Source: Candidatus Omnitrophota bacterium
GTDB lineage: Bacteria > Omnitrophota > Gorgyraeia > Tantalellales > Tantalellaceae
Direction: 5' to 3'
DNA length: 64,000 nucleotides
NCBI GenBank assembly: GCA_014728075.1
Contig: WJMG01000078.1
Location: forward strand, 2,668-66,667
Shown in pieces: positions 8,507 to 50,260 of this stretch (positions are counted from its first letter, which is position 1; each line of letters starts with the position of its first letter). Position numbers and translations under genes: made by a program. The notes beneath the pieces were generated by a model. The model made no database searches, was not told the DNA's origin, and saw nothing but the letters and a program-made list of their open reading frames with translations.

Positions 8507-8905
8507 CTACGAAGGCAGTTTCAGGTATTTACGGGAGGCTTCGCGAAAGCTGATCGCTTCGTTACGGTAAAGCTTGTTCTCTCTGCGGTATTGGGATATT
8601 TCCTCTATCTCTCTTTCGAAGGCCTCGGCAAAACCGGAAGGAAGGTCCAGGAACCTGGTCCCCACCCGGAACATACCGTCACGCAGCTTTTTTACATAAA
8701 CCGTAACGGCCCGGAACCGGTACATCCGGTCTTTCATGAACAGGCGCAAAACGATCTGTCCGTTTTGATCGGGGGGAAGCGCAGACAAAAGCCCGGCGCC
8801 GCCTTTACTGATATCGGCAAGAGCGAGCTCTCCCTCATCCCATTCAACGGGATAAGCCGGATCGAATCTTTTCCATCTTCTTCTTTCCTGCATAAGATAT
8901 TCCAA
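8507..8905 (-). CDS. PilZ domain (c-di-GMP binding) protein
   Basis: RRRWKRF (RxxxR) and DISKGGAGL (D/NxSxxG) motifs. Confidence 0.65.
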   Translation of the reverse strand: MEYLMQERRRWKRFDPAYPVEWDEGELALADISKGGAGLLSALPPDQNGQIVLRLFMKDRMYRFRAVTVYVKKLRDGMFRVGTRFLDLPSGFAEAFEREIEEISQYRRENKLYRNEAISFREASRKYLKLPS

Positions 8906-10180: not shown

Positions 10181-10435
10181 TTATATGTTCATTTTGACCA
10201 GCCGGGCGTTCACTCCGGAAAGAAGGTTTAGTTTCCTTTCCAGTTCTTCGTGGTCTTTATCTTCCCCCACGAGTTCGAGTATTATCAGCCCGGAATTAGA
10301 ACAATCGTCCAGAACGCCCTGGTGAAGCCCAAACCTTGTCCTTATCACGCAGCCCCATCCCGTAAGTATTTTTTGAACTTTTTCGGCGGTCTCTTTTCTT
10401 TGCTCGAGTAAAGTTATAAGCACATTCCTCTGCAT
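10181..10435 (-). CDS. TM1266-like small ACT/NikR-C-like protein (putative 'iron-only hydrogenase system regulator' family), 84 aa
   Basis: Size, hydrophobic/Gly pattern and position next to hydEFG, as for the Thermotoga TM1266 family. Assigned by recall, not by a search. Confidence 0.5.
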   Translation of the reverse strand: MQRNVLITLLEQRKETAEKVQKILTGWGCVIRTRFGLHQGVLDDCSNSGLIILELVGEDKDHEELERKLNLLSGVNARLVKMNI

Positions 10436-10551
10436 CTTCCTCCTTAATAAGCGTTTCGGCGTTTTGGTTTCGCGTCCCCCGCCGCAAGCCCGGGAATAGT
10501 TCCCTTGATCTTCTTCCGGGCCCGTTACGGCTCTACGGACACCTCGTACCG

Positions 10552-10582
10552 AAAAAGGGAGGGAGCTATACCGCTCCCTCCC
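10552..10582 (-). terminator. Perfect 10-bp stem hairpin GGGAGGGAGC-tatacc-GCTCCCTCCC with flanking A/T runs. Terminator between the REC gene and the TM1266-like gene.
   Basis: Direct reading of 10557..10582. The minus strand gives the hairpin followed by TTTTT. Confidence 0.55.
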
Positions 10583-10648
10583 TTTGTAACGGAAAGAAAA
10601 AAAGCTATGATCGAAAGGACCACAACTACAGAGAACATTCAGTCCTCC

Positions 10649-11035
10649 TTATTTTTTTATATTCTTCTCGACCTCGGAAAGAAGAACATCCGGCTTTATG
10701 GGCTTTTCAAGGACGCCTTTCACCGGAAGCCATTCGGAATCCGGCTCGAACCCGAAAGACAGGTTCATGTCCTTCCTGATGCCCGTGGTCATAAGCACCG
10801 GCGTGTCTTTTATCTCCTCGTCGCCGTGGATCTTTCTGGCGATATCGAACCCCTCTGTTTTATTTGCCATCATTACATCCAGAAGGATGAGGTCCGGTTT
10901 TTCCTCTTTAGCCTTTGAAAAGCCTTCCTCTCCGTCCGAAGCGGTTACTATGGAATAGCCCCTGGCCTCGAGAAGAGTCGTCATCGCTTCCCTGAAATCC
11001 GCGTCGTCATCCACTATAAGTATTTTCCCTGGCAT
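10649..11035 (-). CDS. Stand-alone response-regulator receiver (REC/CheY-like) domain protein
   Basis: KILIVDDDADFRE...DLILLDVMM...K motifs. The start was moved to the ATG after RBS AAGGAGG. Confidence 0.8.
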   Translation of the reverse strand: MPGKILIVDDDADFREAMTTLLEARGYSIVTASDGEEGFSKAKEEKPDLILLDVMMANKTEGFDIARKIHGDEEIKDTPVLMTTGIRKDMNLSFGFEPDSEWLPVKGVLEKPIKPDVLLSEVEKNIKK

Positions 11036-12263
11036 TTTTCCTCCTTCTGTTTTTCTGTTCCCGGGCCCTATCACCAAAGGGGGTTATAACCCTTTCCAGT
11101 ATTCCCGACATGTACGATATAATTATACCATAATTAGTGATAGGAACCTTTTGTCTTTTAGCTCTTGCCACCCTGGCCAGCAGTTCTCTGCGGGTAACCA
11201 TACATCCTCCGCAGCTTATGACAAGGGAATACGGAGAAAGGTCCTCCGGAAATTCGCCTCCGGCCGTAACATCGAAAACAAGGTCCCTGCCGGTATACTC
11301 CCTTAACCAGGAAGGTATCTTGCTTCTGCCTATATCCTCCGGTTGAACATGATGTGTGCAGGCCTCAGCGATAAGGACCTCGTCTCCGTCTTGCAGGCGC
11401 TTAACGGCACCTGCGCCCTTTATGAACTCTGCCAGGTCGCCTTTATGCCTGGCGAAAACCACCGAAAAAGAGGTCAACGGGACATTCTCCGGTACTTTAT
11501 CCTTAACCTCCTCGAAGACCTGGGAATCCGTTATGACCAGCGCCGGGGACCTTTCAAGAGAATCGAGAGATTCCGTCAGTCCACTGTCTTTGACGACAAC
11601 CGCTATGCCCCCGGCGTCAAGGACTTCCCTCAACACCTGGACCTGGGGCAGGATCAGCCTGCCCTGCGGCATGGCCCCGTCGATCGGGCATACCAGAACA
11701 ACCGTATCCCCGGCCTTTACTATATCTTTTACCAGCGGGACGGGTGCCCAGTCCCTGGGAGCAAGCCGTATTATCTGTTCTTTCAATTGCTCTATACCTG
11801 CGCCGGTCACCGAACTCACTTTCACGCAAACCCTTCCGTTCTCTTCCCTCAGCCTGTCATCCTCGATGTTTTCTTCAAGATCGCTCTTATTCCATACTAT
11901 CAAAAAAGGCACTCCCTGCTCGCCGAAAGCGGCTATGATTTCCTCTTCGAATTTCCCGGGCCGGGTCCCCGGCTCCATAACTATCAAACCTACATCGGTC
12001 TTTCTAAGGACCCGCCGGGTCTTCAGCACCCTCTCGCGGCCCAGCTCCCCCTCGTCGTCGAGCCCTGCCGTATCTATTAAAACACAGGGTCCTATAGGCA
12101 GGATCTCCATGGCCTTGTAAACAGGATCTGTCGTAGTTCCCGCGCAAGAAGAGACTATTGCCAGGTCCTGTCCCGTAAGCGCGTTTATCAGGCTGGACTT
12201 GCCCGCGTTCCTTCTGCCGAATATCCCTATATGGAGCCTGTTACTTGCCGGTGTTGTATACAT
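11007..12263 (-). CDS. hydF: [FeFe]-hydrogenase maturation GTPase HydF
   Basis: G1 motif GRRNAGKSSLINAL. C-terminal CxH...CxxC (CTHH ... SCGGC) Fe-S motif. Confidence 0.85.
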   Translation of the reverse strand: MYTTPASNRLHIGIFGRRNAGKSSLINALTGQDLAIVSSCAGTTTDPVYKAMEILPIGPCVLIDTAGLDDEGELGRERVLKTRRVLRKTDVGLIVMEPGTRPGKFEEEIIAAFGEQGVPFLIVWNKSDLEENIEDDRLREENGRVCVKVSSVTGAGIEQLKEQIIRLAPRDWAPVPLVKDIVKAGDTVVLVCPIDGAMPQGRLILPQVQVLREVLDAGGIAVVVKDSGLTESLDSLERSPALVITDSQVFEEVKDKVPENVPLTSFSVVFARHKGDLAEFIKGAGAVKRLQDGDEVLIAEACTHHVQPEDIGRSKIPSWLREYTGRDLVFDVTAGGEFPEDLSPYSLVISCGGCMVTRRELLARVARAKRQKVPITNYGIIISYMSGILERVITPFGDRAREQKNRRRKNARENTYSG

Positions 12264-13320
12264 TTTCGTCCCTCCTTCCGGGAAGAAGGGAATCTCCCCG
12301 GGACATGTCCGCGTACCTCCCCATTTCCGGCAGCTTTTCTTTTACTTGTTCGATAAAGTCCTCCGGGCGGGACCCCCTTATTTCCGGCGCCGGATAAATT
12401 TCATATGATCTCGCGTATCGGGGGGGAGTAAAATCGGCCATTATAACATTCGCTCCTCCGGCAAGGGCTCTCATCCGGGGTTCAAGGCTTTCCGCCCCAA
12501 GGGCCGTAGTTGCCGGTATATGCGCTAAAGGAGAAAGTATCCTCATCACGGAGATCGCGCTTAGGGCCTCTCGGCGGGATCCCGCGGGCTCCAGACCCAG
12601 GGCCGTTTCCCCGTGTGGAACAAAAGGCCCCACGGCTACCATATCGAGTGCAAGCTTTCCGAGAAAGACAAGATCCTCCGCCAGACTCTCCTTTGTCTGG
12701 CCCTTAAGCCCTACTATTATACCGCTGCCTGTCTGGAACCCGAGGGCCCGGAGCGTTTCCAGGCATCGTACGCGGTTGTCAAAGGACATACCGGGATGCA
12801 GGGCTTCGTAGATCCTTCTGTTCGAGGTCTCTATTTTAAGAAGGTACCTGTCGGCGCCGGCGTCCCGTAAGACCCGGTATTCTCTCTCTGTTTTTTCGCC
12901 TATAGATACGGTTACCGCGACATCGTATCGATATTTTATTTCCCGGATGACCTCTGCCAGTGACCGGCAATCGTCTTGTCCGTCCTGTCCCGACTGAAGC
13001 ACTATTGTACGCACCCCGGCCCGGAAAACCCTTCCGGCGGCCTCCAGTATCTCTTCAGGCGACATCCTGTATCTTTCGAGCCCGCCCTCGGGACGGTTAA
13101 GCCCGCAATAAGAACAAGCGCCGTCGCAAAAATTCGAAAAGTTTATTATTCCCCTGAACAAGACCCCTTCGCCTATAAACCGCGCCCTGAGAGCATCGGC
13201 TTCTTCTGTTATTCCCGTTTCGGCGGACGGAAGGGACAGGATCTCACGGACCGCCGGCATGTCCTCTCCCCGGAAGGATCTTATCTTTTCCGGAAGACCG
13301 GACCGCCTAAACGAACTCAT
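12241..13320 (-). CDS. hydE: [FeFe]-hydrogenase maturase HydE (radical SAM)
   Basis: CDGACSYC (Cx3Cx2C) and BioB-like architecture, placed between hydG and hydF. The start is ambiguous (13320 or 13260). Confidence 0.8.
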   Translation of the reverse strand: MSSFRRSGLPEKIRSFRGEDMPAVREILSLPSAETGITEEADALRARFIGEGVLFRGIINFSNFCDGACSYCGLNRPEGGLERYRMSPEEILEAAGRVFRAGVRTIVLQSGQDGQDDCRSLAEVIREIKYRYDVAVTVSIGEKTEREYRVLRDAGADRYLLKIETSNRRIYEALHPGMSFDNRVRCLETLRALGFQTGSGIIVGLKGQTKESLAEDLVFLGKLALDMVAVGPFVPHGETALGLEPAGSRREALSAISVMRILSPLAHIPATTALGAESLEPRMRALAGGANVIMADFTPPRYARSYEIYPAPEIRGSRPEDFIEQVKEKLPEMGRYADMSRGDSLLPGRRDENVYNTGK

Positions 13321-14683
13321 CCCTTTTCCCCTTCGCCAGGTCCAAAAGTATTTTTTCCAGCGTTTCTTTCTCTTCGGCTCCCAGACCCGCGGATAGCTTT
13401 TCCACAAGAGCGTACCCTTTTGCCCTCACATCATCCGAAGCGTAGTCGTCAAGGTATTCTTTCAGTGTAATAAGGGCATTTATCCTGCATTTGCCTTTTA
13501 TGGTGCCCGGGCGGGCCATTTCCATGAACGCCTCCCCTGTGCGACGGGACCTGTAGCAGGCGGTACAAAAACTCGGAACGGCGCCTTTTCCGATCAAAGC
13601 GCCGACTACCTGGTCCAGGCTCCGGTGGTCATTGAGCGAGAACTGACCGCATGCCTGGCCCGGTTCAGCGTATCCTCCGGGTGAAGTCCGGGAAGACGCG
13701 CTTATCTGGGACACTCCCAGATCAAAAAGAGCGTCTCTCATCTCCGGAGACTCCCGGGTAGAGAGAATGATCCCCGTGTAAGGAACGGCCAGCCGGAGAA
13801 CGGCTACCAGAAGCATGAACTCCCTGTCGGACATCTCGAAAGGCGCGGCCTCCGAAAGATCAACGCCTTTCGCCGGCTCTACCCTGGGAACAGAGACAGT
13901 ATGCGGCCCTATATTAAATTTTTTCTCCAGATATTCAACATGGGTCAGGAGGCCAAGAGCCTCGAACCGGTGATCATACAATCCGAAAAGGGCCCCTATG
14001 CCCACATCGTCTATCCCCGCCTCGAAAGCCCTGTCTATGGCCGCGAGTCTCTCGTCGGGGTCGCTTTTTGGCCCGCGGGGGTGTACTTTCCTATATGTCC
14101 TCTCATGATATGTTTCCTGGAAAAGCTGGTAAGTGCCTATGCCGGACGCTTTCAGGCGCTTGAACCCTTCCTTTTCCAGAGGGGCACAGTTAACATTTAT
14201 CCGCCTTATCCTGTTCTTACCGTCGGTCTGTGAGTAAATTGTCCCTATACTTTCGGCAAAATAGCCGGCGTCGTCCGGCGATCCGCTTTCCGAAGCGACC
14301 AGAAGTACGCGTTTATGGCCCATTTTCAACAGGCTGCGCGCCTCCGCGGCTATCTCCGGCTGCGCAAGCTTTTTCCTGGGGATCAGTTCATTGCCTTCTT
14401 TGAACGCGCAATAAGAACAGGCGTTAGCGCAGATATTGTTTATGTACAGAGGAGCGAAAAGGACTACCCTGTCACCGTATATCTTTCTTTTTACCTCGGA
14501 AGCGGCCGCGAGGATAGCTTCTGTCTCCCCGGGGCCCTCGGCGGCAAGAAGGACCGCGGCGTCCTCGATAGAAAGCCGGTTCAGGCCGGCACTTTTCTCA
14601 AGGACTTCCATTATTCTTGACCGCCCGGCCTTTCTGCCGGCTTTCAGCGCTTCATGTATTTTTTCTTCATTGATCAGTTTCAT
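13307..14683 (-). CDS. hydG: [FeFe]-hydrogenase maturase HydG (radical SAM tyrosine lyase)
   Basis: CANACSYC and C-terminal CTACYRx22C motifs. ThiH-like. The start was set at MKLINEEKI. Confidence 0.85.
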   Translation of the reverse strand: MKLINEEKIHEALKAGRKAGRSRIMEVLEKSAGLNRLSIEDAAVLLAAEGPGETEAILAAASEVKRKIYGDRVVLFAPLYINNICANACSYCAFKEGNELIPRKKLAQPEIAAEARSLLKMGHKRVLLVASESGSPDDAGYFAESIGTIYSQTDGKNRIRRINVNCAPLEKEGFKRLKASGIGTYQLFQETYHERTYRKVHPRGPKSDPDERLAAIDRAFEAGIDDVGIGALFGLYDHRFEALGLLTHVEYLEKKFNIGPHTVSVPRVEPAKGVDLSEAAPFEMSDREFMLLVAVLRLAVPYTGIILSTRESPEMRDALFDLGVSQISASSRTSPGGYAEPGQACGQFSLNDHRSLDQVVGALIGKGAVPSFCTACYRSRRTGEAFMEMARPGTIKGKCRINALITLKEYLDDYASDDVRAKGYALVEKLSAGLGAEEKETLEKILLDLAKGKRDEFV

Positions 14684-14703
14684 CCTCACCCCGCCAGCGA
14701 TAT

Positions 14704-15195
14704 TCACCCGCCCCTGTTGCGGTACTCTTTTATAAGTTCCGCGGTCCTTTCGGCGTCGAGATCACCGTGTATCTTCTCGTTCACCATTATCACCGGGGCC
14801 AGGCCGCAGGCGCCGAGGCACCTCGCTTCCTGCAAAGTGAACATTTTGTCTTCGGTGGTCTGTCCCACTTCAACCCCCAGCTCCTTTTTAAGGGTTTCCA
14901 GGACCTTTCCGGCTCCCTTTACATAACACGCGGTCCCCATGCATACCGATACGATATATTTCCCCACCGGTTCAAGGTTGAAATAATGGTAAAAGGTAGC
15001 CACTCCCCAGATATGCGCCGTGGGGATGTTCATGTAATGAGCTATTTCGTCCATTACTTCTCTGGGCAAATATCCGTATATCTCCTGGGCTTTGTGCAGA
15101 ATAGCTATTAGCTGGGATTCCGAATGTTCTTTTTCCCGGCACTCGTCCATATATTGTCTGAGCCGCTCCGATCTTTCGTCCTTAACCTTTGTCAT
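14704..15195 (-). CDS. hydC: NuoE-like [2Fe-2S] subunit of a multimeric [FeFe]-hydrogenase (HydC/HndA)
   Basis: CMGTACYV...CLGACGLAP thioredoxin-like 2Fe-2S motif. RBS ACGGAGGG. Confidence 0.85.
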   Translation of the reverse strand: MTKVKDERSERLRQYMDECREKEHSESQLIAILHKAQEIYGYLPREVMDEIAHYMNIPTAHIWGVATFYHYFNLEPVGKYIVSVCMGTACYVKGAGKVLETLKKELGVEVGQTTEDKMFTLQEARCLGACGLAPVIMVNEKIHGDLDAERTAELIKEYRNRGG

Positions 15196-15205
15196 TTTCC
15201 CTCCG

Positions 15206-16978
15206 TTATCTGGATTTTGATAGCTCAGGTATTATTCCTCTCGGCTCTTTCGGCGCATAATGCGTGTGAAGGTACTTATGCGCCGCGGACCCGAGAGGCC
15301 TACCGAGGAACTCCTTGTAAAGCCTCTGAACATCCCTGTTCTCGTGGCTCCGCCTGATGGTCCTGTTCCTGTCAAGCCCGTAAAGGGCTTCCGCCCTTTT
15401 CTTGAGCACATCTTCGTCAAGAGGGATCGAGTTGGACCCGGCGTAAGGCTGACCCCCGCCCCCTATACACCCGCCCGGGCAACCCATTATCTCGATAAAA
15501 TGATACCGGTCGGGATCCTTGCGGACTATGTCGAGAAGTTCCGCGGCGTTACCCAGCCCGTGCGCGACCGCTACTCGTATCTCTTTGCCGTCCATAGTTA
15601 TGCTTCCCTCTTTCACGGACTTGAACCCCCGTATATCCTTGAGCTCTATATCGAGAAGGGTCTCTCCCGTATAAAGCTCGTAAGCGGTGCGTATTGCCGC
15701 TTCCATGACCCCCCCGGTAACACCGAAGATCGCTCCGGCTCCGGAAGAAACTCCGAGAGGGGCGTCGAACTGTTCCGGTTTGATATTATAAAAATCTATA
15801 CCGGAAGATTTTATCATCCACGCGACTTCCCTGGTCGTTACGACAAGGTCGGTGGGGTCCATGCCCTCTACCCGGAGCTCGGGCCTCTGTGCCTCGTATT
15901 TTTTGGCCGTACAGCACATCACGGCAACGGAAAAGATGTTTTCCGGAGACAGGCCCTGTTTATCGGCGAAGTATGTCTTAAGCATTGACCCCATCATCGA
16001 CATGGGGGACTTACAGGTAGAGACATTTTCTATAAGGTCCGGATAGAATTGTTCGAGACACTTCATCCAGGCGCTTGAACAGGAAGTTATCATAGGCAGC
16101 TTGCCTTTGCCCTGCACTCTCTCCAGGAACTCGTTGGCTTCCTCCATTATCGTGAGGTCGGCCGCGAACTGCGTGTCAAAAACATGATCGAACCCCAGAC
16201 GCCTCAACGCCGCGGCCATTTCCCCCTCCATGGCCTTGCCCGGAGGGAACCCGAAAGCCTCTCCTATAGCGGCCCTTACCGAAGGCGCCACCTGCACGAC
16301 CTTCACCAGTTTATCGTCGTTAAGTTTTTCGAACAGTTCCTGCGTATAGTTCTTCTCAACGAACGAAGCGGTAGGGCACACATTTATGCACTGGCCGCAG
16401 GAAGTGCAGACGCTTTCGCTGAAAGGCATATTATACGCCGGCATTACCACCGTATTGAACCCCCTGTGGGCATATCTCAACGCATTGACCTTCTGGACCT
16501 CCTCGCACATGCGCACGCACCTGCCACAAAGGATACATTTGTCCGGGTCCCTGATGACCGCCGGGGAGGAAAGATCTTTTTCGTAATGCTTTTTCTCACC
16601 CTCAAAGTGCCGTTTTCTTATGCCCATGGCGTAAGCAAGCCGCTGAAGTTCGCATATACCGTCCCTTTCGCAGGTATGGCAATCTTCGGGATGGTTGTCC
16701 AGTATCAGCTCCACTATATCCCTCCTGGCCTGTCTCAGGTCACCGGTATTGGTCTTTATGTCCATGCCTTCTTCCACGGGATGCGAACAGGAAGCCACGA
16801 AATTGCGCATGCCCTCTACTTCCACTATACAAACCCGGCACGCCCCTTCTATGGAAAGTTTGGGATGATAGCAAAGACGCGGTATCTTGAACCCCAGGCC
16901 GTCCAGGGCCTGCATTATGGTCTGCCCTTTTTCAACCTTGTAGTCCCTGTTATTGACGGTTATGTTTATCGTTTTCAT
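15206..16978 (-). CDS. hydA: [FeFe]-hydrogenase catalytic subunit HydA (M3 architecture: 2Fe-2S, His-ligated 4Fe-4S, 2x4Fe-4S, H-cluster domain) with non-canonical L1/L2 motifs
   Basis: N-terminal Cys motifs. L1 = PMITSCSSAW, L2 = VMCCTAKKYE, L3 = EIMGCPGGCIGGGGQP. RBS AAGGAGAGG. Confidence 0.9.
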   Translation of the reverse strand: MKTINITVNNRDYKVEKGQTIMQALDGLGFKIPRLCYHPKLSIEGACRVCIVEVEGMRNFVASCSHPVEEGMDIKTNTGDLRQARRDIVELILDNHPEDCHTCERDGICELQRLAYAMGIRKRHFEGEKKHYEKDLSSPAVIRDPDKCILCGRCVRMCEEVQKVNALRYAHRGFNTVVMPAYNMPFSESVCTSCGQCINVCPTASFVEKNYTQELFEKLNDDKLVKVVQVAPSVRAAIGEAFGFPPGKAMEGEMAAALRRLGFDHVFDTQFAADLTIMEEANEFLERVQGKGKLPMITSCSSAWMKCLEQFYPDLIENVSTCKSPMSMMGSMLKTYFADKQGLSPENIFSVAVMCCTAKKYEAQRPELRVEGMDPTDLVVTTREVAWMIKSSGIDFYNIKPEQFDAPLGVSSGAGAIFGVTGGVMEAAIRTAYELYTGETLLDIELKDIRGFKSVKEGSITMDGKEIRVAVAHGLGNAAELLDIVRKDPDRYHFIEIMGCPGGCIGGGGQPYAGSNSIPLDEDVLKKRAEALYGLDRNRTIRRSHENRDVQRLYKEFLGRPLGSAAHKYLHTHYAPKEPRGIIPELSKSR

Positions 16979-16990
16979 CTGATCCTCTCC

Positions 16991-18811
16991 TTAGGCTGTT
17001 TTTACGGCATTGAACTTACAGGCGGCCAGGCACTGCCCGCATTTTATGCATTTTTCTATGTCAATGGCGTGGCGTTCACGGGGGGAACCCGTTACCGCTC
17101 CGGCCGGGCAGACTTTCTTACACGCGGTACAACCGACACAATCCTCGGTAATATAATATTCCAGAAGGTTCCGGCATTCCCCCGAGCGGCACTTTTTTTC
17201 TTTTATGTGCTCCTCATATTCCTCGCGGAAATTCTTTATCGTGCTCAGCACTGGATTCGGCGCCGACTGGCCCAATCCGCACAGTGACGCTTTTTTGATC
17301 GTTTTCCCGAGGCGTTCCAGCTTCTCTATGTCCCCTTCCATTCCGCGCCCTTCGGTTATCCTGGTAAGGATCTCGAGCATTCTTTTGGTGCCTTCCCTGC
17401 ACGGCGTACATTTCCCGCAGGACTCGTTCTGGGTAAATTCAAGAAAAAACCTCGCTATACCGACCATACAGGAATCTTCGTCTATCACGATCATCCCCCC
17501 GGAACCCATTATCGAACCGGCTCTCGCCAGAGACTCGTAATCGATCGGGGTGTCGAGGTACTCTTCGGGAAGACATCCTCCCGAGGGCCCCCCCGTCTGC
17601 ACCGCCTTGAACTTTTTATCTTCCGGTATTCCGCCCCCGATGTCGAAAATGATCTCGCGCAGGGTAGTCCCCATGGGCACTTCGACCAGACCGGTATTAC
17701 GCACTTTGCCCGCGACAGCGAATACCTTGGTCCCTTTGCTTTTCTCCGTCCCCACCGAGCTGAACCAGTCGGCGCCGTCCATTATTATCACGGGTATGTT
17801 CGCCCATGTCTCTACATTGTTTATCAGGGTCGGTTCACCGAAAAGCCCCGAAACCGACGGGAAAGGCGGCCTCGGCCTGGGCATACCCCTTGATCCCTCT
17901 ATCGAATGAATGAGCGCCGTCTCTTCCCCGCAGACGAACGCGCCCGCCCCGAGCTTTATTTCGACATCAAAAGAAAAATCCGATCCGAGGATATTCTCGC
18001 CGATAATGCCGTGTTCCCTGGCGTCCTTGATCGCTTTTTCCAGACGCCTGATGGCCAGCGGATACTCAGCCCTTATGTAAATTATCCCCCTGGAAGCCCC
18101 CACGGCGTACCCGCCTATTATTATGCCTTCCAGGACCGTATGGGGATCTCCTTCAATGGCGCTTCTGTCCATGAAAGCGCCCGGATCGCCTTCGTCCGCG
18201 TTACATATAACATATTTCTTTTCACCTGCGGCCTTTCTGGTGAAATCCCACTTCAACCCCGTGGGGAACCCCGCGCCTCCCCTGCCCCGTAATCCCGATC
18301 TTTTGACTTCCTCCACTACCTCTTCGGGACTCATGCTGGAAAGCACCCTGGCCAGGGCCTCGTATCCTCTCAAGGCCAGGTAGTCATCAATACTTTCAGG
18401 GTCTATTATCCCGCAGTTCCGCAGAGCTATTCTCATCTGTTTTCCGAAAAAACCCACATCTCCGAAAACCCTGAAGAACTTGTTATAAAGGTGGTTTTCC
18501 TCTATTACCAGACGAGCTACGGGCTTGCCTTTGATTATATGTTCTTCAAGTATCTCCTCCAGGTCCGCTTTCCCGACATTCCCGTAGATAGTGTACCCGG
18601 GATTGACTATCATTACAGGCCCCCTGGCGCACATTCCCAGGCACCCGGACAGATTGACCTTTACATCCCTGTAGCTAAGCCCTTTTTCCCGGAATCCGTC
18701 CTTTAAAGCGCTCAAAAGCTCCTTTGACCCCTTGTGCATGCATCCGGGCCCGTCGCAGAGGGTTATGACCCTCGCGGCGACCACATCGTCTCGTTTATAC
18801 TTCTCAGCCAT
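16991..18811 (-). CDS. hydB: NuoF-like flavoprotein subunit (HydB/HndC) with N-terminal 2Fe-2S thioredoxin-like domain, FMN/NADH-binding core and C-terminal 2x[4Fe-4S]
   Basis: GRGGAGFPTGLKW. CGKCTPCREG. CVGCTACKKVCP and CIKCGQCLAAC. Confidence 0.9.
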   Translation of the reverse strand: MAEKYKRDDVVAARVITLCDGPGCMHKGSKELLSALKDGFREKGLSYRDVKVNLSGCLGMCARGPVMIVNPGYTIYGNVGKADLEEILEEHIIKGKPVARLVIEENHLYNKFFRVFGDVGFFGKQMRIALRNCGIIDPESIDDYLALRGYEALARVLSSMSPEEVVEEVKRSGLRGRGGAGFPTGLKWDFTRKAAGEKKYVICNADEGDPGAFMDRSAIEGDPHTVLEGIIIGGYAVGASRGIIYIRAEYPLAIRRLEKAIKDAREHGIIGENILGSDFSFDVEIKLGAGAFVCGEETALIHSIEGSRGMPRPRPPFPSVSGLFGEPTLINNVETWANIPVIIMDGADWFSSVGTEKSKGTKVFAVAGKVRNTGLVEVPMGTTLREIIFDIGGGIPEDKKFKAVQTGGPSGGCLPEEYLDTPIDYESLARAGSIMGSGGMIVIDEDSCMVGIARFFLEFTQNESCGKCTPCREGTKRMLEILTRITEGRGMEGDIEKLERLGKTIKKASLCGLGQSAPNPVLSTIKNFREEYEEHIKEKKCRSGECRNLLEYYITEDCVGCTACKKVCPAGAVTGSPRERHAIDIEKCIKCGQCLAACKFNAVKTA

Positions 18812-18821
18812 TTTTTCCTCT

Positions 18822-19178
18822 CTATTTTATGACCCACTCTTCGATTATTTCTCCCTTTTTCAAATGCCTTTCGATTATCTCCCTGGCCCTTTCGGGGTCC
18901 ACCTTTCCGTATTTCACGGGTATTTTTCCTTCTTCTATTACTTCGACCGTAGGCTCCAGGTTGCACCTTCCGGCACATCCTTTCTGGCTCAGGTAAACAT
19001 CGGTAAGCCCCTTTCTTACGGCTTCCTCGAATATCTGCATTATTTCTTTCGATCCTGCGGCGATCTCGCAGGTAGCCATGCCTACATAGACCCGTTTGGT
19101 CGAAAGATAACCTTTGCCTATTATCCGGTTGACCGCTTCAGCCCTTTTCTTTTTAATGTTGTCTATCGGTTTTACCAC
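18822..19178 (-). CDS. HndB/NuoE-like thioredoxin-fold ferredoxin domain protein (118 aa, only three Cys), GTG start
   Basis: Strong RBS AGGAGG before the GTG. Cys at 37, 68 and 72. Confidence 0.55.
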   Translation of the reverse strand: MVKPIDNIKKKRAEAVNRIIGKGYLSTKRVYVGMATCEIAAGSKEIMQIFEEAVRKGLTDVYLSQKGCAGRCNLEPTVEVIEEGKIPVKYGKVDPERAREIIERHLKKGEIIEEWVIK

Positions 19179-19189
19179 TTTTCCTCCTG

Positions 19190-21013
19190 CTATATTGTGA
19201 AAACAAAAGTATTACCCTTATCTCCCGGAAAAACATCGATGCTTCCTCCGTGGCTCTCTATTATTTCCCTTGTTATGAAAAGCCCCAGGCCTGTGCCTTT
19301 CTCCTTCTTTACCTCCTCTCCCTCCAGCCGTGAAAACCTCTTGAACAGTCTTTTCTTTTCCTGCGGGGTTATGGGCCTTCCGTCGTTATACACGCTGACC
19401 TCCGCCCCGCCTTCCGGACGGCGTACGGCCTTCACCTGTATCTTACCGTTTTTTTTCCCGTATTTTATTGCGTTGCTTATAAGATTGTTGGCCACTACCC
19501 TCATAAGGTCTTCATCGGCTTCAACCTCCATTGCTTCCGGGATATCTATTGCTACTTCTATTTCTTTAGCGCTTATCCTCTTGGCGAAAGTATCCACCGA
19601 AACATCAAAAATATCCTCTTTGATCTTCAGCGGTACCTTGTCCACCTTTATCTCCCCTTTCTCTATCCTGCTGAGGCTGAGGAAATTCTTAACGGTCGAG
19701 TCGAGATGGTCCAGGTTCCTTCCTATGGAATCCAGCGCCTTCTGCTGCTTGAAGTTAACCATGCCCAGAAAACCGTCCCGGACGGAATAAACATTCAGGA
19801 TGGCCGAGGACAGGATGCCCTTGAGCTCATGCGAAACGAAGCCGATCAGGTCAAGATAGCTTTTATTCAGGGCTTCCAGTTTGCGATTGGAAACTTTTAG
19901 CTCTCCGTAGCTCTCGCTGAGTTTCCTGGCCATATTGTTGAAAGAAGCCGATAGCTTGTTCAGTTCGGTTATAGCGGTATGCGGCCTGACCCGGCACTTC
20001 AGGTCGCCCGCGGATATCTTCTCCGTCGCTTTCAACATATCCTTGACCGGCCGCGAGATCACACCCGCCAGTAGAACAGAAAGAAATATGGCCATGACCA
20101 CGGCTCCCGAGACTATGAGCATGTACAACAGCAAAGAGTTCCTTGCTATGTCATGAAAGGGCTTCTCGAGAACACCAACATACAATATACCTATTATTGC
20201 GCCTTCAGGGTTCCGTATGGGCTCGTAGCCGGTAATATACCAGTCGTTCACCACGAAAGCCCTGTCCAGCCAGGTGCGCCCGTTCTTTACAACATTGTCA
20301 TAAACCTCTTCTGAAACCCTTGTCCCTATAGCCCGTTCGCCTTCGGCATTAAGCACATTTGTAGCTACCCTTACATCATCCTGAAAGATCGTGACCGTTC
20401 CCACCGGCCGGTCCTCGTATATCTTTTCTTCGAAAACCAGGTCCCTTATCTTGTCTACCAGTTCGTAATCCCGGTTGATTATCCTGCCCCCGACCATTAC
20501 CTGTTCTATCTTTCCTTCAGTATCCTCTACGGGTACGGCGTATTCTTTGACCATCAGGTCCTTAAGCACTTTCCTGGAACTCGGGCGCGCCTTTGGGGTA
20601 TACAGGATCCTTATCCCCTCCCCGGGCTCGATCCCCGGCTTAGGCCCTGCCCCGGCCAGTATGCGGACGCCTCCCGAAGGTAAGCCTTCAGCGGCTTTAC
20701 GAGCAAGAAGATTGGCGCTTTTCCCCGCTTCTTCGGCCGTAAGGCTGTAAACATAGTGCAGTTCCGCTTTGCTTTTTATCCATACGGGATCGGCGCCGGG
20801 GTCTACGAGGCTGAGCGCCTGCCCTATGTCCTTTATCTCCTCGTTAAAAACACTGGCGGCCGCCTTCAGGTCGTCGGTCACCTGGTCCTGGGCACGGTCG
20901 ATGACATTACTTTTTATCAGGTAAAAGCCCAGTGTCCCGGCCGATACCCCGAGAAAAAGTATCACCGTCATAAAAGACAGCAATATTGTCGTCTTAAGCG
21001 TCCGTGTCCTCAT
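19190..21013 (-). CDS. Sensor histidine kinase with a ~260-aa extracytoplasmic dCache-like domain (TM-dCache-TM-HAMP-HisKA-HATPase_c) embedded in the hydrogenase operon
   Basis: Two TM segments, HAMP (ISAGDLKCRV) and H-box VSHELKG. The periplasmic domain has a Cache-like pattern. Confidence 0.8.
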   Translation of the reverse strand: MRTRTLKTTILLSFMTVILFLGVSAGTLGFYLIKSNVIDRAQDQVTDDLKAAASVFNEEIKDIGQALSLVDPGADPVWIKSKAELHYVYSLTAEEAGKSANLLARKAAEGLPSGGVRILAGAGPKPGIEPGEGIRILYTPKARPSSRKVLKDLMVKEYAVPVEDTEGKIEQVMVGGRIINRDYELVDKIRDLVFEEKIYEDRPVGTVTIFQDDVRVATNVLNAEGERAIGTRVSEEVYDNVVKNGRTWLDRAFVVNDWYITGYEPIRNPEGAIIGILYVGVLEKPFHDIARNSLLLYMLIVSGAVVMAIFLSVLLAGVISRPVKDMLKATEKISAGDLKCRVRPHTAITELNKLSASFNNMARKLSESYGELKVSNRKLEALNKSYLDLIGFVSHELKGILSSAILNVYSVRDGFLGMVNFKQQKALDSIGRNLDHLDSTVKNFLSLSRIEKGEIKVDKVPLKIKEDIFDVSVDTFAKRISAKEIEVAIDIPEAMEVEADEDLMRVVANNLISNAIKYGKKNGKIQVKAVRRPEGGAEVSVYNDGRPITPQEKKRLFKRFSRLEGEEVKKEKGTGLGLFITREIIESHGGSIDVFPGDKGNTFVFTI

Positions 21014-21635
21014 TGATCACGCCTTTTTTGTCCGTGTTTATGAAATAAATTATGTTTTCCAGCTCCAGGCCCAGATTCACATTGTTTATAACGGTATCCT
21101 CCTCGCCCTTGAGATTAATGGGCGCGAAGTTGAGGATCCCTTTTATCCCGGCTGATACCATTATTTCAAGCACCTGCTGAGCAGCTATATCCGGCACGGC
21201 TATTATGCCCACCCTTATTCCGTGCTCTTTTACATACCCCCTCATCTTATCCAGCTGAAGCACGGGTATCTTTTCATCCGCATTGTACTTGGCGGGATCT
21301 ATATCAAATCCCGCTACTATCCTTATGTTCTCCTTTTCAAATCCCCGGTAATTCATCATGGCGGTGCCGATATGTCCGGTCCCGACCACGATAACATCCT
21401 GGACCTTGTCCTTGCCGAGTATCTTATTAAGCTTTTCAACCAGTTCGGCGACCGTATACCCTCCTCTTTTGTTTCCTGATATACCGAACATCGAAAAATC
21501 TTTTCTTACCTGGGCGGGGGTAACCCCCACCGCATCCGCGAGATTATCCGAAAAGACCTTTACAAAGCCCATTTTCTTTAGTCTATATAACGCGTTTTTA
21601 TATTTGGATAACCGTATTATCGTTCTTTTGCTCAT
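20994..21635 (-). CDS. rex: Redox-sensing transcriptional repressor Rex
   Basis: N-terminal winged helix (TIIRLSKYKNALYRL) and Rossmann GTGHIG NADH-binding motif. Confidence 0.85.
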   Translation of the reverse strand: MSKRTIIRLSKYKNALYRLKKMGFVKVFSDNLADAVGVTPAQVRKDFSMFGISGNKRGGYTVAELVEKLNKILGKDKVQDVIVVGTGHIGTAMMNYRGFEKENIRIVAGFDIDPAKYNADEKIPVLQLDKMRGYVKEHGIRVGIIAVPDIAAQQVLEIMVSAGIKGILNFAPINLKGEEDTVINNVNLGLELENIIYFINTDKKGVINEDTDA

Positions 21636-21669
21636 ATTATTGTTCCTTTATTCACATTATTCTGCATAA

Positions 21670-21697
21670 ATTTTACCATTTATCAGCAGAAAGTCAA
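21670..21697 (-). promoter_or_regulatory. Sigma70-like promoter for the rex-hydrogenase operon (minus strand: -35 TTGACT at 21692-21697, 16-nt spacer, -10 TAAAAT at 21670-21675)
   Basis: Direct reading of the reverse complement. Confidence 0.5.
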
Positions 21698-21702
21698 CCT
21701 TT

Positions 21703-21720
21703 TTGTGATTTTTTTCACAT
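21703..21720. promoter_or_regulatory. Rex operator-like inverted repeat TTGTGA-tttttt-TCACAT (TGTGA-N6-TCACA, as in the Streptomyces ROP-type consensus)
   Basis: Direct reading. It lies immediately upstream of the -35 of the rex promoter. Confidence 0.55.
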
Positions 21721-21727
21721 TTTTTAT

Positions 21728-21760
21728 CCAGAAAAAGGCACTCCCGTGCCTTTTTTCTGG
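21728..21760. terminator. Bidirectional rho-independent terminator (ccag-aaaaa-GGCAC-tccc-GTGCC-tttttt-ctgg) downstream of the MFS transporter gene
   Basis: Direct reading. There are T-runs on both strands. Confidence 0.65.
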
Positions 21761-21765
21761 ATCAT

Positions 21766-23139
21766 TTAAAGCTCTCTCGGAGGCTTTCCCGCTCTCCAGT
21801 GCTCTTCGATATCCTCCAGTTTATGCCCTTTGGTCTCCGGAACAAAGAAAAAACAAAAAAGCCATCCCGCTATCCCCAATCCCGAGTACAACCAGAATGT
21901 CCCGGCCTTGCCCAGCTTTTCTATAAGCGTAAGAAAGGTCATCGCTATAACCAGGTTAAAAGCCCAGTTGCACATGGTGCTCAAGCTCATCGCTCTTCCC
22001 CTTATCTTGAGAGGAAAGACTTCGGCGATTATCAGCCAGGCAATGGGCCCGAGACTAACGGCAAAAGACGCTATATAAAGCATGAGGCTGCCTACGGCTA
22101 CCCACTTCAGCGCCCCCGAAAGACTGGCCATGTTGAAGGCGAAACCGAGAGCCCCGAGGCTAATGACCATTCCAGCAAGGCCCCAGAAAAGAAGCTTGCG
22201 TCTTCCCACTCTGTCGACCAGTTTTATGGCTACCACGGTCATAAGAACATTAACTATCCCTACTCCCATCGTGGCAAGTATCGCTACCTGCGCCGAACCG
22301 AACCCCGCGAACCCGAATATTGTAGGAGCGTAATATATTACCGTATTTATGCCCGTTATCTGCTGAAAGAACATTATCCCTATCCCTATTACCAGCGGCA
22401 TCCTTAGCCAGGGCTGAAAAAGCTCTTTCCATCCGCCGCTTTCTTCCGTAAGGGATCTGCGGATATCGGATATTTCCTCTTCTATGTTATCGTCCTTTTG
22501 TCTGATCTTTCCCAGAACTTCCCTTGCCCTGTCAACGAGGGAACGGCTCATCAGCCATCTGGGGCTGGCCGGGAGAAAGGATATACCTATACCCAGCAGG
22601 ATCGCCGGCACGGCTCCTACCGCGAACATCCATCGCCATTCATGCCTGCCGGCGAATAAGTAGTCGATAAGATAGGAAAGGACAATGCCGCAGGTAATGG
22701 CCAGCTGGTTGAGGGAAACCAGAGCCCCCCGTATGTTCGGAGGGGACACCTCGGAGATATACAGCGGCGCGGCGAAAGAGGCTATCCCGATCGCTATCCC
22801 TATGACGACCCGTCCCGCCACCAGAAACCCCACCCCGGGCGCCAGGGCGGTCGCCAGAGAGCCCAGCACGAAGATCACGGCCGTGGCGATTATTATTTTT
22901 TTACGGCCGAACATGTCCGAGAGCTGTCCGCTCAAAGCGGCACCCGCTATGGCTCCCACCAGAACGGCGCTCACCACGACCTCTTCCGAAGCCGAAGTAA
23001 GGGCAAACTGGTCCTTCAGAAAAAGCACGGCTCCGGAGATAACCCCCGTATCGTACCCGAAAAGCAATCCCGCCAGCGCCGCGACTCCCGCGGCGACATA
23101 AACGAACAGGTTCTCTTTACCTCCCGGCTTCTGCTCCAT
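21766..23139 (-). CDS. MFS transporter, sugar-porter family
   Basis: 12 TM helices. GRVVIGIAIG and PETKG motifs. Confidence 0.8.
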   Translation of the reverse strand: MEQKPGGKENLFVYVAAGVAALAGLLFGYDTGVISGAVLFLKDQFALTSASEEVVVSAVLVGAIAGAALSGQLSDMFGRKKIIIATAVIFVLGSLATALAPGVGFLVAGRVVIGIAIGIASFAAPLYISEVSPPNIRGALVSLNQLAITCGIVLSYLIDYLFAGRHEWRWMFAVGAVPAILLGIGISFLPASPRWLMSRSLVDRAREVLGKIRQKDDNIEEEISDIRRSLTEESGGWKELFQPWLRMPLVIGIGIMFFQQITGINTVIYYAPTIFGFAGFGSAQVAILATMGVGIVNVLMTVVAIKLVDRVGRRKLLFWGLAGMVISLGALGFAFNMASLSGALKWVAVGSLMLYIASFAVSLGPIAWLIIAEVFPLKIRGRAMSLSTMCNWAFNLVIAMTFLTLIEKLGKAGTFWLYSGLGIAGWLFCFFFVPETKGHKLEDIEEHWRAGKPPREL

Positions 23140-44136: not shown

Positions 44137-44213
44137 GGGGCGGTAGTTCAGTTGGCTAGAACGTCGGACTGTCGATCCGAAGGTCGCGGGTTCGAGCCCC
44201 GTCCGCCCCGCCA
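44137..44213 (+). tRNA. tRNA-Asp (anticodon GTC), 77 nt including CCA
   Basis: Cloverleaf folded by hand: acceptor GGGGCGG/CCGCCCC, anticodon loop CTGTCGA, T-arm GCGGGTTCGAGCCCCGT. Confidence 0.9.
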
Positions 44214-45011: not shown

Positions 45012-45089
45012 TGGTGGGCGCGGTAGGATTCGAACCTACGACATCTACCTTGTAAGGGTAGCGCTCTAAACCAGCTGAGCTACGCGCCC
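45012..45089 (-). tRNA. tRNA-Val (anticodon TAC)
   Basis: The reverse complement folds as acceptor GGGCGCG, anticodon loop CTTACAA, T-arm GTAGGTTCGAATCCTAC, CCA end. Confidence 0.9.

Positions 45090-47770: not shown

Positions 47771-50260
<2,490 letters not shown>

Follow-up and report, generated by a model that had tools for sequence, protein, structure and literature searches.

How is an [FeFe]-hydrogenase controlled when its genes share one locus with a redox repressor, a membrane-bound sensor kinase and a receiver protein? This question was raised by a stretch of DNA from a Candidatus Omnitrophota bacterium (assembly GCA_014728075.1). The window, which is the whole stretch that was analysed, comprises 64,000 nucleotides (nt) and corresponds to positions 2,668-66,667 of contig WJMG01000078.1; all coordinates are window positions unless a related locus is named. 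It contains a ten-gene unit on the minus strand in the order rex, Cache kinase, HndB-like, hydB, hydA, hydC, hydG, hydE, hydF and REC. This unit is not peculiar to the genome and represents a self-contained control cassette that is conserved in other bacteria. The explanation that we consider reasonably probable as a whole is that the hydrogenase cassette is controlled by both Rex and the kinase, with a carboxylate as input of the kinase and an output of the receiver on HydC.

A first-pass annotation of this DNA had given the same order of genes from rex to REC, all in one direction, and this was borne out by the listing of open reading frames (ORFs) and by the family scans. Its remark that structural genes, maturase genes, Rex, a two-component system and a TM1266-type small protein are combined at a single locus was also correct. 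The locus had been called an eleven-gene supra-operon; ten genes are indeed packed from rex to REC, but the eleventh sits behind a strong terminator.

Gene content of the hydrogenase operon

Genes were called from the ORF listing and from protein family scans with Pfam and curated equivalog models. All ten lie on the minus strand. The first, rex (21635..20994), encodes 213 amino acids (aa) and scored 239.5 bits with model NF003996 (cutoff 138) and 209 bits with NF003995 (cutoff 126). Its product consists of a winged-helix DNA-binding domain (PF06971, Put_DNA-bind_N, aa 2-48) and a Rossmann domain for NAD(H) (PF02629, CoA_binding, aa 77-172), and the Rossmann motif GTGHIG, which has the form GxGxxG, is present in the translation. 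The sensor histidine kinase gene (21013..19190, 607 aa) showed sCache_3_3, HAMP, HisKA and HATPase domains in Pfam. It is followed by the gene of an HndB-like, thioredoxin-like protein of 118 aa (19178..18822) with weak matches to 2Fe-2S_thioredx and NF041612.

The structural genes come next. The NuoF-like subunit for FMN and NADH is encoded by hydB (18811..16991; Complex1_51K, NADH_4Fe-4S, 2Fe-2S_thioredx and Fer4); it carries an N-terminal 2Fe-2S domain and a C-terminal 2x[4Fe-4S] domain and reached 517 bits with TIGR01959, under the cutoff of that model (558.65). The catalytic [FeFe]-hydrogenase subunit is encoded by hydA (16978..15206; Fe_hyd_lg_C and Fe_hyd_SSU, PF02906 and PF02256) and was above the cutoff of the curated model NF040763, 'NADH-dependent [FeFe] hydrogenase, group A6' (837.8 bits vs 765). 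The NuoE-like [2Fe-2S] subunit is encoded by hydC (15195..14704; 2Fe-2S_thioredx, E = 1.5e-54). All three maturases of the H-cluster scored above their equivalog cutoffs, namely the radical-SAM enzymes HydG (14707..13307; TIGR03955, 486.7 bits vs 312) and HydE (13323..12241; TIGR03956, 285.2 bits vs 254.6) and the GTPase HydF (12263..11007; TIGR03918, 560.6 bits vs 325.6; HydF_dimer and HydF_tetramer). The last gene of the operon, REC (11035..10649), encodes a receiver-only response regulator of 128 aa (Response_reg, E = 2e-20). From these assignments the enzyme is predicted to be a multimeric [FeFe]-hydrogenase of the NADH/ferredoxin type, like HndABCD and HydABC, and electron bifurcation is predicted for it.

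The HndB-like protein matched the N-terminal domains of NfnB, HoxF and HydB and Aquifex Fd4 in the PDB. It has only the cysteines C37, C68 and C72 (GMATC...GCAGRC), all of which are present in each of 37 homologs, and 34 of these homologs have no others. The protein fails the four-cysteine criterion of a thioredoxin-like [2Fe-2S] ferredoxin, and its family scores were under the cutoffs. It may bind a cluster with a non-cysteine ligand, or none. HndB has been stated to be without a redox centre (PMC10084766), and the three-cysteine pattern fits this statement.

The same set of subunits is known from HndABCD of Solidesulfovibrio fructosivorans and from HydABC (PMC10084766; 7P5H, 8A6T), i.e., HydA/HndD, a NuoF-like HydB/HndC, a NuoE-like HydC/HndA and a small HndB-like fourth subunit. 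A Rex site is predicted upstream of the hnd genes of S. fructosivorans, as it is here (PMC10084766). The two loci differ in that the present gene order is hndB-like, hydB, hydA, hydC and in that the maturase genes here belong to the same operon. For the regulation of hnd, HydS was proposed, and neither a sensor kinase nor a receiver is present there (PMC10084766); the present enzyme is known from its genes alone.

Conservation of the cassette in other bacteria

Related loci, which carry L-numbers below, were fetched around relatives of the kinase; the 80 best-scoring loci were taken, and they are not a random sample. Comparison of the locus with its relatives had been proposed in the first-pass annotation and identified it as one copy of a widely conserved cassette. 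A scan of one genome per species gave at least 585 relatives of the kinase. They occur in Omnitrophota, Phycisphaerae, Raymondbacteria, Fibrobacterota, Spirochaetes and Verrucomicrobiota and also in Desulfobacterota, Acidobacteriota, Ignavibacteria and Aminicenantes. The best 120 database clusters listed for the kinase were all 50-57% identical to it over 95-100% of the length and came from Omnitrophota, Sedimentisphaerales, Anaerobaca and other Planctomycetota.

Among kinase orthologs with at least 44% identity, rex was located immediately upstream in 36 of 42 loci, hydB/hydA followed within 4 kb downstream in 30 of 32, and a REC-only gene was present on the same strand in 24 of 25. The synteny of rex, kinase, hydrogenase and REC is nearly universal in these orthologs across Omnitrophota, Planctomycetota, Spirochaetes and other phyla. 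Below 38% identity (30-38%) the link to rex and hydrogenase is gone, and the REC-only neighbour often stays. The exact ten-gene order was also found in L012 and L015, and L067, a contig that starts inside the kinase gene, has the same order from hndB-like onward; maturase genes are positioned differently in other related loci. Identities across phyla were 74-87% for the HndB-like protein and, in cassettes of the HndB type, 74-79% for HydA and 69-79% for HydB. The regulatory frame was also seen on other hydrogenase subtypes, i.e., with a HydB-GltD fusion (L035) and in operons that start with hydC.

The HydB protein of L035 (11840..15043 of that locus) is a fusion of 1067 aa with a GltD/NfnB-like FAD/NAD(P) domain. 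A 1.4-kb 'gap' between hydB and hydA of this locus is accounted for by this GltD/NfnB-like extension of HydB and not by a formate dehydrogenase; similar gaps are present in L008, L027, L043, L048 and L068. Such cassettes carry the same rex-kinase-REC frame on a different, possibly NADPH-linked hydrogenase subtype. Several genomes have a second, kinase-less hydCBA operon near the main cassette (L002 18890/L084; L089 1741..6348; L042 4978..9557), preceded by a perfect Rex box in L002 or by its own rex and REC genes in L089 and L042.

Full-text literature searches revealed no description of the cassette of rex, Cache kinase, hyd genes and REC or of REC-HydC fusions. The nearest remark concerns Elusimicrobia, in which Rex genes are stated to adjoin group A/C hydrogenases (bioRxiv 10.1101/765248).

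Transcription unit and probable Rex operators

The genes of the unit are tightly packed. An overlap of 20 nt between rex and the kinase gene was read from the sequence, and the next four junctions, from the kinase gene to hydC, have gaps of 11, 10, 12 and 10 nt. The remaining genes overlap, hydC and hydG by 4 nt, hydG and hydE by 17 nt, hydE and hydF by 23 nt and hydF and REC by 29 nt. The first-pass annotation had described overlaps or gaps of 25 bp or less; actual gaps do not exceed 12 nt, and the overlaps it gave for rex with the kinase gene (20 nt) and for hydF with hydE (23 nt) were found again. Its overlap of about 14 nt between hydE and hydG exists, but with the ATG at 13323 as start its length is 17 nt. 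This start of hydE was inferred from its register with the profile; the ORF is open from 13407.

The unit is closed by an intrinsic terminator at 10585..10554 (minus strand) with a 13-bp stem, a 6-nt loop and a U-run. Its folding energy was -31 kcal/mol (z = -5.64), and none of 200 shuffled sequences was as stable, in agreement with the terminator previously marked after REC. The upstream boundary is formed by another hairpin, at 21762..21726 (minus strand), which was assigned by folding as the terminator of the upstream sugar-porter gene (21766..23139; Sugar_tr/TIGR00879). It lies between this gene and the rex promoter and folded with -23.6 kcal/mol (z = -7.3; 0 of 200 shuffles as stable). 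A simple terminator scan had listed neither hairpin, and both were established by folding. Since strong hairpin terminators flank both ends, the unit is insulated on both sides. Inside the unit no convincing terminator was found, strong hairpins being present at the two ends only, and a search with Rfam gave no riboswitch or leader anywhere in the hydrogenase locus.

A hydrophobic ORF of 37 codons (MFSVVVVLSIIAFFLSV...) lies at 10525..10637 of the minus strand, with a GGAGG ribosome-binding site and an ATG near 10637. It begins 9 nt past the stop codon of REC, and the terminator is located inside it. As a gene it is probably spurious, as no conserved counterpart was present in 83 loci.

The putative promoter of the unit is of the sigma-70 type and is located at 21697..21670 (minus strand), with TTGACT as -35 hexamer, a 16-nt spacer and TGgTAAAAT as extended -10 region. 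It is the TTGACT/TAAAAT promoter that had been recognized upstream of rex before, matches the consensus at 10 of 12 positions with the TG present, and is predicted to start transcription near 21663.

The Rex consensus is TTGTGAA-W4-TTCACAA (PMC2883068). The distal Rex operator O1 at 21720..21703 (minus strand), ATGTGAAAAAAATCACAA, deviates from TTGTGAA-N4-TTCACAA by 2 mismatches; its centre is near -48.5, and 5 nt separate it from the -35 hexamer downstream. In the window alone one Rex-box site was counted vs 0.7-1.9 expected by chance, which is not significant, and for this reason conservation across loci was used as evidence. Within 260 nt upstream of rex, a box with at most 3 mismatches was present in 35 of 41 related loci (1.2 expected from shuffles), and a box with at most 2 mismatches in 23 of 41 (0.07 expected). 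Searching 1.27 Mb of loci gave 40 boxes with at most 2 mismatches, 28 of which sit within 400 nt upstream of rex. Perfect boxes also precede the kinase gene in the rex-less cassettes L033 and L045, the second hydCBA operon of L002 and a REC-kinase-hydCB operon. The layout of box, 5-8 nt and TTGACx recurs in L001 and L002. The Rex operator predicted at 21703..21720 by the first-pass annotation is thus supported by the conservation of the box.

A second Rex box, absent from that annotation, is the proximal operator O2 at 21657..21640 (minus strand), ATGTGAATAAAGGAACAA. It is degenerate, with a perfect left half-site and 4 mismatches in all, spans about +7 to +24, and overlaps the ribosome-binding site of rex at a distance of 63 bp from O1. 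In the 41 loci, second boxes with at most 4 mismatches occurred almost solely at an offset of 62-64 bp from the primary box. The promoter is flanked by O1 (about -48) and O2 (about +15), and as 63 bp correspond to six turns of the helix, both operators are on one face of the DNA. Control by Rex through these boxes appears very likely, and cooperative repression combined with negative autoregulation by Rex would follow from the arrangement. Such autoregulation fits the experimentally shown control of hyd, hydG and rex itself by Rex in Caldicellulosiruptor bescii (PMC6391272).

Some observations do weigh against this assignment. A repressor site is not usually found upstream of the -35 hexamer, where O1 is located, O2 carries 4 mismatches in the window, and the core of O1, TGTGA-N6-TCACA, is also the consensus of the CRP/FNR family. 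The O1 palindrome could accordingly be an activator site for such a protein at about -48, with Rex acting elsewhere; a position upstream of -35 is more typical of activators, and the box count of the window by itself did not exceed chance. We regard this as highly improbable, since 35 of 41 cassettes, which come from several phyla, have the box upstream of rex, and it often is a perfect or 1-mismatch copy of TTGTGAA-W4-TTCACAA, the extended consensus specific for Rex (PMC2883068). Moreover, the second box over the transcribed leader (+7 to +24) is in the position of a repressor site, and no gene of the CRP family was detected in the cassettes examined. A related doubt concerns the extent of the transcript. 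Internal promoters might drive the maturase genes and REC separately, so that Rex would control only rex and the kinase gene. Weak promoter-like matches do occur inside the genes, and maturase genes are often located elsewhere or reordered in relatives. The 16 internal matches are, however, near the expectation from shuffled sequence (10.5 +/- 3.2). Gaps of at most 12 nt, overlaps of 4-29 nt, the hairpins restricted to both ends and the ten-gene order kept identically in L012 and L015, and from hndB-like onward in L067, also argue against separate transcripts, which are improbable on this evidence. A single transcription unit from rex to REC, with Rex acting through O1 and O2, is the likely arrangement.

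The sensor kinase and its ligand pocket

The kinase is composed of a first transmembrane helix (TM1), a periplasmic Cache region of two modules (aa about 35-295), a second transmembrane helix (TM2), HAMP, HisKA with H395, and HATPase. H395, N510, N514 and GTGLGL of the N and G boxes were invariant in an alignment of 28 orthologs, and H395 was present in 80 of 83 sequences; from these residues the kinase is predicted to be catalytically competent. The protein had previously been called a dCache kinase. Two modules are in fact seen in the structural model, but Pfam assigned sCache_3_3 (PF17202, E = 3.8e-34) and a partial Cache_3-Cache_2 (PF17201, E = 1.5e-25) and not dCache_1.

The AlphaFold2 model of the periplasmic part (aa 30-300) had a pLDDT of 90.9 and a pTM of 0.88 and consists of a long N-terminal helix and two alpha/beta modules. 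The sole sequence matches of the sensor in the PDB were 8PY1 (2e-8) and 8PY0 (4e-7), and the top five Foldseek matches of the model were the same two entries. 8PY1 and 8PY0 are formate-bound sCache domains of two chemoreceptors, and the study describing them defined the formate pocket (PMC11804620).

Pocket residues were compared with those of PacF given in PMC11804620 and bioRxiv 10.64898/2026.04.10.717710. R142, T145 and T158 of PacF correspond to R215, T218 and T231 of the kinase, and Y191 of PacF (Y167 of R3) corresponds to Y263; each of these four was kept in 82 of 82 loci. T131-I132-F133 of PacF correspond to T208-I209-F210, of which T208 was present in 82 of 82 loci, F210 was invariant and I209 was conserved to at least 90% in the 28-sequence alignment. 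The register of T208, I209 and F210 was inferred from a beta-hairpin of the model and not from superposition. F206 of PacF (F182 of R3) corresponds to Y278, a tyrosine in 81 of 82 loci and a phenylalanine in one. The pocket residues hold down to 30% overall identity of the kinases.

PacF, Atu0526 and R3/R6 (8PY1, 8PY0) are therefore the closest known relatives of the sensor, being covered by the same Pfam models, being its best and only PDB sequence matches and best fold matches, and sharing the Arg, Thr-Ile-Phe, Thr, Thr and Tyr residues of the pocket. They differ from it in their output, as this family has been reported to consist almost exclusively of chemoreceptors (PMC11804620) and the present protein is a histidine kinase. 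The kinase, moreover, has a tyrosine at the pocket-closing position and an extra N-terminal module, and its binding of a ligand is predicted.

A small carboxylate is, by a slight preference, the probable ligand of the kinase. Formate specifically is the best single guess, and a tentative one, because several points stand against it. The pocket-closing phenylalanine (F182 of R3, F206 of PacF), which excludes larger acids, is a tyrosine in the kinase. In the model the formate-type module adjoins TM2 and the extra module precedes it, whereas in PacF formate binds to the membrane-distal module. No gene of formate metabolism was present among the genes of the window examined. Finally, Cache_3-Cache_2 receptors of Pseudomonas, which share the key pocket residues of the kinase and have Val in place of Ile132, sense C3 acids (bioRxiv 10.64898/2026.04.10.717710), so that the ligand cannot be fixed from the sequence.

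A distant homolog of the kinase with 35% identity and the same pocket residues was observed in L056 (5434..13188 of that locus), from a metagenome-assembled genome of Melioribacter roseus. Its neighbours are a REC-only gene, a SelB-like gene and a gene for a fusion of cysteine desulfurase and a SelD-like protein. Selenocysteine machinery is often tied to formate dehydrogenases, and this context gives a weak, independent hint at formate.

The receiver protein and HydC

The REC protein of 128 aa contains PF00072 only and no DNA-binding output domain in Pfam, and its orthologs have 123-130 aa or are fused to HydC. The motifs of the phosphorylation site are present (DDD at 9-11, D53 and K111). The alpha4-beta5 segment is unusual (KDMNLSFGFEPDSEWLPVKGVLEKPIKP). 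PDB matches were generic receivers, and membership in NF045717 (DVU0259/DivK-like) was rejected with 71 bits vs a cutoff of 160.

The kinase gene of L034, L038, L040 and L042 is directly followed by a gene for a fusion protein of 290-303 aa, with this same receiver as N-terminal half and HydC as C-terminal half. The window REC was 57% identical, without gaps, to the receiver of the L042 fusion and shares with it the unusual segment KDMN..F.FEPD..LPVK..LEKPIKP, and for the window HydC the identity with the other half of this fusion was 48%. When a database was searched with the fusion, 119 among the best 120 clusters carried PF00072 together with PF01257; they are mostly from Omnitrophota and are annotated merely as 'NAD(P)H-dependent oxidoreductase subunit E'. 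Three further fusions that were looked up were all encoded in cassettes of the order rex, Cache kinase, REC-HydC, HndB-like, hydB, hydA and REC/TM1266-like/maturase genes. Unfused REC adjoins hydC in 14 of 31 loci, and maturase genes intervene in the rest.

As receiver and HydC are fused in relatives, the logic of gene fusion suggests that the receiver works with HydC, which is the likely docking partner. Because the receiver is without a DNA-binding domain and because of these fusions, the two-component system probably adds no extra transcriptional layer. The regulation of the locus had been considered denser than that of Rex-only or HydS/PP2C/kinase loci; the combination is indeed absent from the literature searched, but the kinase and receiver would thus not add to transcriptional control. 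An action of the receiver on HydC, with post-translational control favoured over a transcriptional output, is given about equal weight to all other possibilities together. Activity, direction, assembly or stability of the enzyme might be affected. It counts against this view that the receiver of the window is free-standing, with three maturase genes between REC and hydC, and a gene fusion shows a functional link and not the nature of the effect. In its most specific form, which is tentative, the Cache kinase would phosphorylate the docked or fused receiver and thereby switch the activity, direction or oligomeric state of the bifurcating hydrogenase according to the back-pressure of external electron sinks; it would have no role in transcription, and Rex would set the amount of the module.

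The pair might instead act on transcription, if REC, as an intermediate of a phosphorelay or a sink for phosphate, connects the kinase with an unlinked DNA-binding regulator of the hyd promoter or of other fermentation genes, or if REC modulates Rex. Receiver-only proteins serve as relays or sinks elsewhere (Spo0F, CheY-type sinks), an OmpR-type regulator is encoded just downstream in L001, and kinase homologs of 30-38% identity keep a REC-only neighbour without hydrogenase or rex, so that the kinase-REC pair is not intrinsically tied to HydC. On the other hand, no conserved gene for a DNA-binding regulator or Hpt protein is present in the cassettes, the near-consensus promoter implies that no activator is needed, and more than 100 database clusters have REC and HydC in one polypeptide. 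REC also stays in the rex-less locus L039, which argues against Rex as an obligatory target. Such a transcriptional role is rather unlikely. Kinase and receiver could even be a two-component system that is functionally unrelated to the hydrogenase and has no more than the transcript in common with it, e.g., a general sensor of carboxylates or nutrients. Distant homologs do occur in contexts without hydrogenase, such as beside SelB/SelD in Melioribacter. This is nevertheless very improbable in view of the synteny with rex (36 of 42) and hydB/hydA (30 of 32) in orthologous loci across phyla, its extension over HndB-type, HydB-GltD fusion and hydC-first hydrogenases, and the existence of REC-HydC fusions. 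The action of the receiver on HydC is therefore retained as the preferred reading.

Proposed control and comparison with known systems

If Rex behaves here as it is known to do elsewhere, its dimers would occupy O1 and O2 as long as the NADH/NAD+ ratio is low and keep the operon, rex included, switched off. If NADH builds up, Rex would leave the DNA, and the hydrogenase, the maturases HydG, HydE and HydF that are needed for its activation, and the kinase/receiver pair would be produced jointly; autoregulation of rex would bring repression back. The periplasmic Cache domain of the kinase would most likely read external formate or another C1-C3 carboxylate, a signal that could report the back-pressure of electron sinks in an anoxic habitat. 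The kinase would then phosphorylate the receiver-only protein, which most likely docks on HydC, and the hydrogenase complex would thereby be adjusted post-translationally in its activity, direction or assembly.

The Rex regulons of Firmicutes (C. bescii, C. saccharolyticus, Thermoanaerobacterium) have boxes of the type TTGTGAA-N4-TTCACAA, as here, and their targets are the structural hyd genes, hydG (with a small CopG/TM1266-type gene) and rex, which are de-repressed at high NADH (PMC6391272, PMC5886521). In Firmicutes rex is separate and the targets are in scattered operons. The present hydrogenase operon, in contrast, begins with rex itself, has a promoter enclosed by two boxes with a spacing of 63 bp, and includes the genes of a full membrane sensor kinase and a receiver. 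Omnitrophota, Planctomycetota and the other phyla are not represented in the accessible studies of Rex.

Two-component systems dedicated to a hydrogenase locus are otherwise exemplified by HoxJ/HoxA with HoxBC of Cupriavidus necator, where a [NiFe] sensor detects H2 and an NtrC-type DNA-binding regulator controls transcription. The present receiver differs in being without a DNA-binding domain and in being fused to an enzyme subunit in relatives. In the HydS systems the input is a cytoplasmic, H2-sensing paralog of hydrogenase with Ser/Thr signalling. HydS with PP2C and kinase (hfs-type) in Ruminococcus and Thermoanaerobacterium, as far as it is cited in PMC10084766, is likewise a second input besides Rex on a bifurcating hydrogenase. 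The input here differs from it, being a periplasmic Cache domain on a His-Asp two-component system, and no HydS is present.

Rex-regulated [FeFe]-hydrogenases, HndB-type tetramers, TM1266-type genes and formate Cache domains are each already known singly. With respect to the literature searched, the position of rex inside the operon behind a two-operator promoter appears to be new, as do the dedicated Cache kinase with a formate-type pocket, the receiver, which is a separate protein here and part of a HydC fusion elsewhere, and the wide spread of this frame outside Firmicutes. The control of H2 venting in fermenting and syntrophic anaerobes is known mainly from Firmicutes, with Rex and with HydS and its Ser/Thr signalling. 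Large and mostly uncultured lineages (Omnitrophota, Phycisphaerae and other Planctomycetota, Spirochaetes, Fibrobacterota, Raymondbacteria) would have a different solution, consisting of an NADH sensor in the operon with a two-operator clamp, a membrane kinase with a formate-type pocket and a receiver that is fused to a hydrogenase subunit in more than 100 clusters. If the receiver does act on HydC, a two-component system would control an electron-bifurcating enzyme after its translation, in a way that is open to direct test, and would be the first His-Asp system with a hydrogenase complex as output and a widespread alternative to H2 sensing of the HydS type in Omnitrophota, Planctomycetota and other anaerobes. 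If formate is the ligand, its sensing would link formate and H2, which are interchangeable interspecies electron carriers. The cassette consists of defined parts, i.e., sensor domain, kinase core, free or fused receivers and two operators, that can be expressed without culturing the host.

The 84-aa protein downstream of the operon

The gene behind the terminator (10435..10181, minus strand) encodes 84 aa and had been described as TM1266-like. It has the TM1266 fold, but it failed the cutoffs of TIGR03959 (18 bits vs 60.8) and PF21699 (15.5 vs 27). With 96.4 bits vs a cutoff of 85 it belongs to the sister family NF052672 (CPF_0552) and not to the TM1266 family. By sequence no match was found in the PDB, and TM1266 was found by fold search only. 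The AlphaFold2 model (pLDDT 92.9) matched 2NZC (TM1266) best, with a TM-score of 0.81-0.84 and an rmsd of 2.3-2.9, followed by the metal-binding domain of NikR. Cys29, His38 and Cys45 are invariant in the CPF_0552 family, which suggests a metal or cluster site that TM1266-like proteins do not have.

A jackhmmer search joined the protein to TM1266-like genes located after REC in L002, L019, L021, L022, L040 and L042. Relatives of the 84-aa protein itself are encoded after REC in L019 and L022 and after hydA2 of the second hydCBA operon in L084; others adjoin Rnf/V-ATPase genes (L085) or form the end of an operon for Fur, flavodiiron protein, ferritin, rubredoxin and AhpC (L086). The gene in the window has its own ribosome-binding site. 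In the GC-rich spacer of 118 nt (10436..10553) between the operon terminator and this gene, neither a sigma-70-like promoter nor an Rfam match was found.

The protein shares the beta-alpha-beta-beta-alpha-beta fold with TM1266 (2NZC; TIGR03959, 'putative iron-only hydrogenase system regulator') and with the C-terminal part of NikR, and like TM1266, which is encoded beside hyd and maturase genes, it is small and stands alone; its own gene follows the terminator of the hydrogenase operon. It differs from TM1266 in its family, NF052672, and in having relatives beside Rnf/V-ATPase and oxidative-stress operons as well. It is best described as a small ligand- or metal-binding fold that is loosely linked to redox and iron loci and lies outside the transcription unit.

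Other features of the window

The genes dnaA (51889..53298, minus strand), gyrB (47771..50233) and gyrA (45153..47672) are annotated in the window, and the GC skew changes sign near 52 kb, by dnaA. From these genes and the turn of the skew, the operon lies about 30-40 kb from the probable origin of replication and is co-oriented with replication there. Two other kinase genes were identified. One (5433..7367) encodes a HAMP-PAS-HisKA-HATPase kinase and overlaps the gene of an ABC-type substrate-binding protein (7364..8368); the other (34499..36271) gave an sCache_like-HAMP-PAS kinase in the family scan. A PilZ-domain gene was found at 8507..8905 by the same scan. Two tRNA genes, the only features that Rfam gave elsewhere in the window (44137..44210, plus strand; 45015..45089, minus strand), are located between a glycogen-synthase-like gene (42502..44007) and gyrA.

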